Part shown: piece after piece, positions 56,173 to 56,721 of the stretch | How positions within the stretch are numbered: the stretch's first letter is position 1 | Layout: every line of letters starts with the position of its first letter | NCBI RefSeq assembly: GCF_058153355.1 | Contig: NZ_CM177019.1 | DNA: 64,000 nt | Direction: 5' to 3' (one strand) | The notes under the pieces: generated by a model | The model's database searches: none | The model's input: only the letters and a program-made list of their open reading frames with translations | Told to the model about the DNA's origin: nothing | Translations under genes and position numbers: made by a program

Positions 56173-56721
56173 AATTAATCTTCACCTATCCATGTTGATT
56201 ATATTTCATTACTAACGCTACTCGCTGTAGCGAGTTACATGCCAACAATTCAACGATCCATATATAGTTAGTATCATGTTTTGATTATTACAACCATACC
56301 TATTTTGCCATTGCGGCTTGCCGTCCACAAAAAATAACAACACAAAATATTAGCCAAAGAATTAATTAAGATTAACCTGACATTTTTAATGTTATCCCTA
56401 AAAAATATAATCAGGGGAATGTATTCGGTGTTAATCAATCAGCCAAATTATGGTCCATTATTGATGGAACCTCATACGCAAAATTGGCACCAGACCTCCT
56501 GTACAGGTTGAATGGCTGAAAAAAGATAAGCAGATGCTCGCTTTTTGGGCTTCTGGAAGAAAAACTCTCCGCACTGGCGGTATTACACTGGTCTGGTGCT
56601 ATGACGACAAATGCCCGGTAAGAGTATCTAAACCTGAATTCATTTCAGCTTATCAACACGCTCAAAGTCGCCCCCTGAACGTTAACCTGAAGTGAAAATC
56701 TTTGCTGTTAATGAAATAAAA

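Follow-up and report, generated by a model that had tools for sequence, protein, structure and literature searches.

An old, AT-rich, probable promoter region and its probably incidental palindrome upstream of a DUF2726 gene in Escherichia

The locus and its features

The window, i.e., the whole stretch of 64,000 nucleotides that was analyzed, is a segment of an Escherichia chromosome in which the minus-strand genes ycdZ, ycdY, ycdX, and ghrA come first in window order. They are followed by a serine tRNA gene, a set of repeats, and a gene for a DUF2726 protein, which lies downstream of phoH and its terminator and is read in the same direction. The spacer that separates this gene from phoH contains the AT-rich region under study. 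The features to which the text refers are as follows.

54947-55034, plus strand: tRNA-Ser(GGA), after ghrA
55016-55480: RtT-like repeats, about 2.5 copies of 180 nt, between tRNA-Ser(GGA) and the DUF2726 reading frame
55486-56172, minus strand: DUF2726 gene, 228 amino acids, with its ATG at 56172-56170
56173-56760: spacer between the DUF2726 reading frame and phoH, 588 bp
56173-56400, minus strand: AT-rich upstream regulatory region of the DUF2726 gene, 32.0% GC
56181-56212, minus strand: invariant 32-nt block GTAATGAAATATAATCAACATGGATAGGTGAA, proposed core promoter, short leader, and ribosome-binding site
56182-56187, minus strand: Shine-Dalgarno sequence AGGTGA, 9 nt ahead of the ATG, unchanged within Escherichia
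56198-56203, minus strand: -10-like hexamer TATAAT, 25 nt upstream of the ATG
56220-56235: 7-bp inverted repeat ACTCGCT-GT-AGCGAGT (gene strand ACTCGCTACAGCGAGT; perfect allele as search pattern, ACTCGCTNNAGCGAGT), 48-63 bp upstream of the ATG
56284-56311, minus strand: alternative promoter-like site ATGGCA, 16 nt, TG-n-AATAAT, from the consensus scan only
56407-56434, minus strand: alternative promoter-like site TTAACA, 16 nt, GATTAT, from the consensus scan only
56401-56717: distal spacer, changing at about the neutral rate, 38-51% variable columns
56465-56695, plus strand: 76-codon open frame, with an ATG-initiated 53-aa reading frame at 56534-56695
56721-56747, minus strand: phoH intrinsic terminator, from the terminator scan
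Beyond the spacer, in window order, minus strand: phoH, efeB, and efeO

The neighbors of the DUF2726 gene are phoH, tRNA-Ser, and the RtT-like repeats; no regulator gene is present at the locus, and when 54.5-57.0 kb was compared with Rfam at E <= 1, no match fell within the spacer. Each copy of the RtT-like repeats opens with a duplicate of the last 19 nt of tRNA-Ser(GGA), and the copies score 41.7 and 39.9 bits with the Rfam RtT family, slightly under its 45-bit cut-off; at the same position, the RefSeq annotation of strain 2011C_4037 carries an 'RtT sRNA'. Strain SC477 has none of these repeats and a tRNA-to-gene gap of only 91 bp, so that the copy number differs among strains. Additionally, the Rfam family Ysr251, a Yersinia antisense sRNA, matches the plus strand at 56766-56959 (182.9 bits, E = 6.6e-51), which is antisense to the 3' end of phoH; this match may simply reflect the conservation of the phoH coding sequence.

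The DUF2726 protein and the age of its gene

The protein matches Pfam PF10881 (DUF2726) over residues 90-205 with an E value of 1.8e-18 and a score of 66.9 bits against a cut-off of 24.7; we take this family to be classed in the PD-(D/E)XK superfamily. A hydrophobic segment at the N-terminus is putatively transmembrane. The same reading frame is annotated by RefSeq (PGAP) in E. coli, and searches with the protein in PADLOC, NCBIfam, and PDB sequences returned no family and no solved relative. Truncated forms of 76, 128, and 145 aa, some of which are labelled partial, occur in the 90% cluster of the protein.

The GC content of the gene is 43%. Relative to E. albertii, dN/dS amounts to 0.16 overall, to 0.064 in the DUF2726 domain, and to 0.43 in the N-terminal anchor and linker (residues 1-85). 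The corresponding dS is 0.39 for the DUF2726 gene, 0.33 for phoH, 0.71 for ghrA, and 0.69 for ycdX. The gene order phoH-DUF2726-ghrA-ycdX is common to E. albertii and Salmonella enterica; in the latter, it reads putP-phoH-DUF2726, followed by ghrA-ycdX in some genomes, and the protein is 73% identical. The low dN/dS of the domain, a dS like that of the flanks, and the synteny together indicate that the gene is functional and old, and, judging from the gene order, it is one that has stood beside phoH since before the Escherichia-Salmonella split. The sequence-only reading had described the gene as acquired; the gene order, which E. albertii and Salmonella enterica have in common with the window, and a dS equal to that of the flanking genes both speak against this. 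The protein would be pictured as PD-(D/E)XK-like with a putative membrane anchor, and its low-GC accessory gene as a resident of long standing.

Records of the widespread Salmonella orthologue give a product of 151 aa; from an ATG farther upstream, the full-length frame (MSFMFFVSCLAIAF...) can be read without interruption, and the shorter form looks like a start-codon call rather than a truncation. STM1127 was considered as the Salmonella orthologue and rejected, since it is a MurR-family repressor of a ManNAc island. In more distant genera, homologues of about 50% identity were found, in Erwinia directly upstream of a VgrG-DUF2169-PAAR toxin cluster and in Dickeya amid TraG, MazE/PIN, and integrase genes; these Erwinia and Dickeya neighbors hint at a role of the DUF2726 family in conflict or mobile islands.

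Composition and constraint of the upstream region

The GC content of 56173-56400 compares with 50.6% for the whole window and falls in the bottom 0.7% among all 228-nt windows of the 64 kb; its AT-richness is therefore beyond chance. The region is one of about nine similarly AT-rich segments within the 64 kb, of which the most AT-extreme, at ~48.5-49.5 kb, is presumably the csgD-csgB intergenic region, judged by its position. The TpA frequency is 0.118 in the AT-rich region and 0.046 window-wide, and the 1.2-kb segment formed by gene and spacer has a GC content of about 40.5%. All three AT runs quoted by the sequence-only reading are found, and the AT-rich stretch that it described upstream of the gene is confirmed.

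The conservation of the region was followed in an alignment that compares the window with three alleles from E. coli, with 26 metagenome loci, with Escherichia sp. MOD1 and E. albertii, and with a contig assigned to a Collinsella metagenome-assembled genome (MAG). The 1450-bp contig in question, JAIJJM010000775.1 (Collinsella sp. MAG), is 99% identical at the protein level to the Escherichia locus and is most likely a binning contaminant. Identity to E. albertii is 88.6% in the coding sequence, 79% in the AT-rich 228 bp, and 71% in the distal spacer (56401-56700), and it rises to 93% in the last 45 bp ahead of the ATG; the neutral expectation derived from the gene dS of 0.39 is about 70%. Among the sequences of the E. 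coli clade, the variable columns amount to 12.7% in the AT-rich part and to 38% in the distal spacer. The AT-rich part thus changes more slowly than both the distal spacer and the dS expectation, i.e., it is constrained, while the distal part is approximately neutral; the AT-rich region evolves more slowly than the adjoining neutral spacer. The Salmonella counterpart, the upstream 228 bp, has a GC content of 24.6% and is largely unalignable; AT-richness at this position has persisted since before the Escherichia/Salmonella split. The view that an AT-rich regulatory region precedes a low-GC accessory gene is supported by these data, with the addition that this region is under constraint.

Such a region could also be a divergent promoter that drives a small gene on the plus strand, either the 53-aa reading frame or the 76-codon frame. 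Two promoter-like sites, 56239-56268 and 56377-56406, are on the plus strand; no stop interrupts the frame in the window, and an 84-nt core is 83% identical to E. albertii as against 71% for the whole distal spacer. However, the frame contains a stop codon in the 2011C_4037 allele, and frameshifts or deletions disrupt it in SC477, MOD1, and E. albertii. Among 5.8 billion proteins, only eight Escherichia fragments correspond to it, as sporadic 'partial hypothetical' entries, and it has no Pfam, NCBIfam, or significant PHROG match. The differences are distributed over the codon positions as 3/4/7, a bias that is not significant, and the distal region evolves at about the neutral rate. A divergent promoter is therefore barely credible, and the 76-codon frame is probably a decaying remnant or non-coding.

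Proposed core promoter and ribosome-binding site

The block GTAATGAAATATAATCAACATGGATAGGTGAA is the best conserved part of the upstream region. The window shares it without any difference with the sequences that were retrieved independently of the block, namely the three E. coli alleles and those of Escherichia sp. MOD1 and E. albertii; the 26 metagenome loci were fetched by an exact match to GTAATGAAATATAATCAACATGGATAGGTGAA and are hence uninformative on its conservation. Its core, TGAAATATAAT, which includes TATAAT, is the sole promoter-like element that is also retained in Salmonella, where it stands about 30 nt upstream of the ATG. Salmonella keeps TGAAATATAAT, TGGATAG, and TAATTAATTATG at near-equal distances.

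No acceptable -35 hexamer is found 16-18 bp upstream of TATAAT, where the candidates are AGCGAG, GCGAGT, and CAGCGA, and a TG extension (TGn) before TATAAT is absent. The -35 position of TATAAT coincides with the right arm of the inverted repeat (AGCGAG). In the promoter consensus scan, the TATAAT site at 56203-56198 is unlisted, and the promoter-like sites of the region are not in excess of those in shuffled sequence (4 versus 2.0 +/- 1.4). It is by conservation alone that TATAAT would be preferred as the promoter of the gene over the sites at 56311-56284 and 56434-56407. The conservation pattern would place the RNA start ~7 nt past TATAAT, near 56191-56193, and the resulting leader of ~20 nt would bear the Shine-Dalgarno sequence. 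Having neither a usable -35 nor a TG extension, the promoter would be intrinsically weak or reliant on a factor; since a perfect -10 of this kind is weak on paper, there would be room for an activator or a repressor near the palindrome.

This arrangement resembles the sigma-70 promoters that rest on a consensus -10 and have a poor -35. The TATAAT of the DUF2726 gene is likewise perfect from Salmonella to Escherichia, and its distance to the Shine-Dalgarno sequence and the ATG is suitable; in contrast to such -10-dominated promoters, it has no TG extension, and its activity and sigma factor are deduced from the sequence. TATAAT and the ribosome-binding-site block form the only strongly constrained upstream element and offer a concrete target for studies of the DUF2726 gene.

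The inverted repeat

The repeat reported by the sequence-only reading at about 50 bp from the ATG is indeed present at 56220-56235. Its symmetry was compared with chance by searching dinucleotide-preserving shuffles of the 228 bp for perfect stems of at least 7 bp with loops of at most 10 nt. An equally good repeat is held by 23% of the shuffles (mean 0.35 per shuffle), and such repeats occur window-wide at 0.41 per 228 bp. With 23% of the shuffles as good, the dyad symmetry is not beyond chance.

The window and 31 related loci were compared for their alleles, which are written here on the gene strand. The perfect form, ACTCGCT-AC-AGCGAGT, is carried by 15 of the 32 sequences; a further 15, MOD1 among them, carry ACACGCT-GC/TC/AC-AGCGAGT, in which 6 of the 7 pairs are formed. 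The E. albertii allele, ACACACT-TC-AACGAGT, forms 4 of 7 pairs, and Salmonella has no counterpart of the inverted repeat. Among the 1037 complete E. coli genomes having the locus, the exact 78-nt allele with the perfect repeat was found in 266, and the others have the 6/7 form; this is also the form in enteropathogenic strain EPEC E2348/69. Arm position 3 is an A in E. albertii, MOD1, EPEC E2348/69, and the 2011C_4037-type allele; with this base in the outgroups, the perfect dyad is most simply explained by one derived A-to-T change. No compensatory change is present in E. albertii, whose two changes fall at non-partner positions and do not compensate each other.

The repeat columns vary at 4 of 16 positions (25%) versus 25-30% in the surrounding DNA. 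Within E. coli, 2 of the 16 columns vary and the core CGCT-NN-AGCG is kept in every allele; from this retained core, the palindrome may contain a weak Escherichia-specific site. A search of the 64-kb window with up to 2 mismatches gave no second copy of the repeat. The proposal that the repeat is an operator does not hold up against a dyad that is at chance level, unconserved, and uncompensated, that has no regulator gene beside it, and that occurs only once in the window. From the comparison of alleles, we infer that the palindrome is a chance-level, lineage-specific sequence rather than a conserved operator; it would be incidental sequence at the -35 position that was perfected by one A-to-T change in one E. 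coli lineage.

Classical repressor operators that lie over the -35 element provide the closest comparison. Here too, a 16-bp dyad is situated ~17-32 bp upstream of a conserved -10. Unlike such operators, this dyad is at chance level, imperfect in most of the orthologous promoters, and lost outside E. coli; moreover, there is no covariation, no cognate regulator gene nearby, and no further copy in the window.

The palindrome might nonetheless be a lineage-specific operator that has newly become perfect in about a quarter of the locus-bearing E. coli and answers to a regulator encoded elsewhere. The single derived A-to-T change was enough to raise the dyad from 6/7 to a perfect 7/7, the resulting allele is common (266 genomes), and the dyad overlaps the -35 position of a conserved -10 in a promoter without a -35 of its own. 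On the other hand, one substitution is what drift is expected to produce, the repeat has no added conservation and no other copy within the 64 kb even when 2 mismatches are allowed, and no regulator gene is located at the locus; to our knowledge, the palindrome is also unlike the well-known E. coli operator consensus sequences. We regard such an operator as very improbable. By a still longer shot, the perfect palindrome over the missing -35 would be a new repressor or activator site that confers lineage-specific control on a membrane-anchored PD-(D/E)XK nuclease-like protein, of which distant homologues are encoded in toxin clusters of type VI secretion and in islands of integrative elements; were this true, it would be an example of operator birth.

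A further explanation places the repeat in RNA, as a hairpin in a long 5' UTR that starts at an upstream promoter-like site and acts on mRNA stability or translation. The predicted hairpin has a 6-bp stem, a UACA loop, and an energy of -8.4 kcal/mol and is part of the minimum-energy structure as well as of the centroid, and promoter-like sites are available upstream at 56311-56284 and 56434-56407. However, the 121-nt leader folds no better than its shuffles (z = -0.06), and the hairpin is weaker in 74% of the E. coli alleles and gone in E. albertii and Salmonella. It is dropped from the consensus fold, in whose alignment one row has wrong coordinates and is to be disregarded, and it has no Rfam match, which leaves the RNA explanation highly improbable. 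A terminator or attenuator reading of the stem was rejected because no T-run (U-run in the RNA) follows it on either strand; terminator-like sites in 56150-56460 number 0. A second, weak hairpin at 56201-56176 (-3.1 kcal/mol) has GGAUAG in its loop.

Lastly, the left arm of the repeat overlaps a sigma-54-like promoter sequence, TGGCATG-N4-TCGCT, on the minus strand at 56244-56229. The GG-N10-GC spacing is correct, and there are 2 mismatches to TGGCACG-N4-TTGCW; yet matches of such quality number 6 in the window against 16.6 expected by chance. E. albertii no longer has the GC of the -12 element, MOD1 differs in the -24 element, Salmonella has nothing comparable, and no gene for an enhancer-binding protein lies nearby. 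The probability that this sequence serves as a sigma-54 promoter is next to negligible.

H-NS and the reading of the region

H-NS favors AT-rich DNA and coats most such DNA in enterobacteria. The AT content of the region is in the range of H-NS-bound regions, with 32% GC over 228 bp and 40.5% over 1.2 kb, and binding of H-NS to it is plausible from composition alone; we put at about even the chance that H-NS would coat the AT-rich kilobase as a whole, again on its composition. The high-affinity H-NS motif is TCGATAAATT (Lang et al. 2007, PMC2094087). A single match with 2 mismatches to TCGATAAATT is located at 56256-56247, where composition-matched shuffles give a mean of 0.61 (P = 0.45), and such a lone match at chance level does not bear out a specific H-NS site.

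The sequence-only reading also took the region to be curved DNA. The power of the AA/TT periodicity at 10-11 bp is not above that of shuffles (P = 0.46), and the five A/T tracts of at least 4 bases are spaced at 24, 26, 15, and 39 bp, i.e., they are unphased; curvature is not supported. Searches of the literature on DUF2726 and on H-NS ChIP in EPEC/E2348 gave no ChIP or hns-mutant data that cover this locus. Of the strains that carry it, the best studied are EPEC E2348/69 and those of the Shigella species whose names occur in the cluster of its protein.

In its original form, the model held that an acquired gene is silenced by H-NS through curved AT-rich DNA and that the repeat is the operator of a specific regulator. 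The GC content of 32%, the raised TpA frequency, the low GC of gene and spacer (~40% over 1.2 kb), and a palindrome over the -35 position of TATAAT, which is a typical location for a repressor, are in its favor. However, the gene is not a recent import, as indicated by its synteny with Salmonella and E. albertii and by a dS that is the same as that of the flanks; the A-tracts are not phased, and the H-NS motif matches are at chance level. The repeat, in turn, is at chance level and unconserved, with no covariation, no neighboring regulator gene, and no second copy in the window. The model as a whole is quite improbable.

A comparison with the targets of xenogeneic silencing leads to a similar picture. 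Shared with those targets are a GC content 18 points under that of the window, an abundance of TpA steps, a gene whose own GC is low (43%), and a locus that differs among E. coli strains. In contrast to them, the motif match is at chance, no phasing of A-tracts is seen, and the gene is no recent import, being syntenic and having diverged along with its flanks.

With a probability of roughly 70%, 56173-56400 serves a low-GC DUF2726 gene as its promoter and 5' regulatory region, one that is ordinary and old, and the palindrome is incidental. Of the earlier interpretation, the AT-rich regulatory region and the plausibility of H-NS binding are retained, while curvature, recent acquisition, and the operator are given up. 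As an ordinary AT-rich promoter region whose palindrome fails the tests of chance and conservation, the stretch is of little significance.

The slot between the phoH terminator and serX

The DUF2726 segment was found in 1044 of 5426 complete E. coli genomes (~19%), at 93-97% identity to the window; in the remaining complete genomes, the match begins only at window position 56718, the phoH terminator. The breakpoint between the DUF2726-type and the pga-type arrangement lies at 56717/56718. In CFT073, the slot is occupied by pgaABCD, and the end of pgaD is 7 bp from the breakpoint. E. coli strains without pga and ycdT between phoH and csgG are reported by Cimdins et al. 2017 (PMC5635171).

The arrangement phoH-pgaABCD-ycdT-ycdU-serX of E. 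coli K-12 and CFT073 occupies the same chromosomal slot, from the phoH terminator to serX, whereas the slot in the window holds only the 1.2-kb DUF2726 segment. The locus-bearing E. coli include O111, O103, an O15:H18 strain labelled ST69, and EPEC E2348/69, and the 90% cluster of the protein includes the names of Shigella sonnei and S. dysenteriae. The same DUF2726 arrangement beside phoH recurs in Escherichia sp. MOD1 and E. albertii. Since the DUF2726 form is shared with Salmonella and E. albertii, the pga form looks derived. This distribution suggests that the DUF2726 form would be ancestral and that pgaABCD-ycdT, the PNAG biofilm locus, would be a derived insertion or replacement; a derived pgaABCD-ycdT segment in most E. 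coli is a by-product of modest value from this analysis.

A plasmid BLAST with the spacer and the protein yielded only large chromosome-like records and distant DUF2726 proteins. In EPEC E2348/69, a gene for a tyrosine integrase and a DUF3987 gene directly follow the DUF2726 gene, so that an integrative element appears to be located on the serX side of the locus in this strain.
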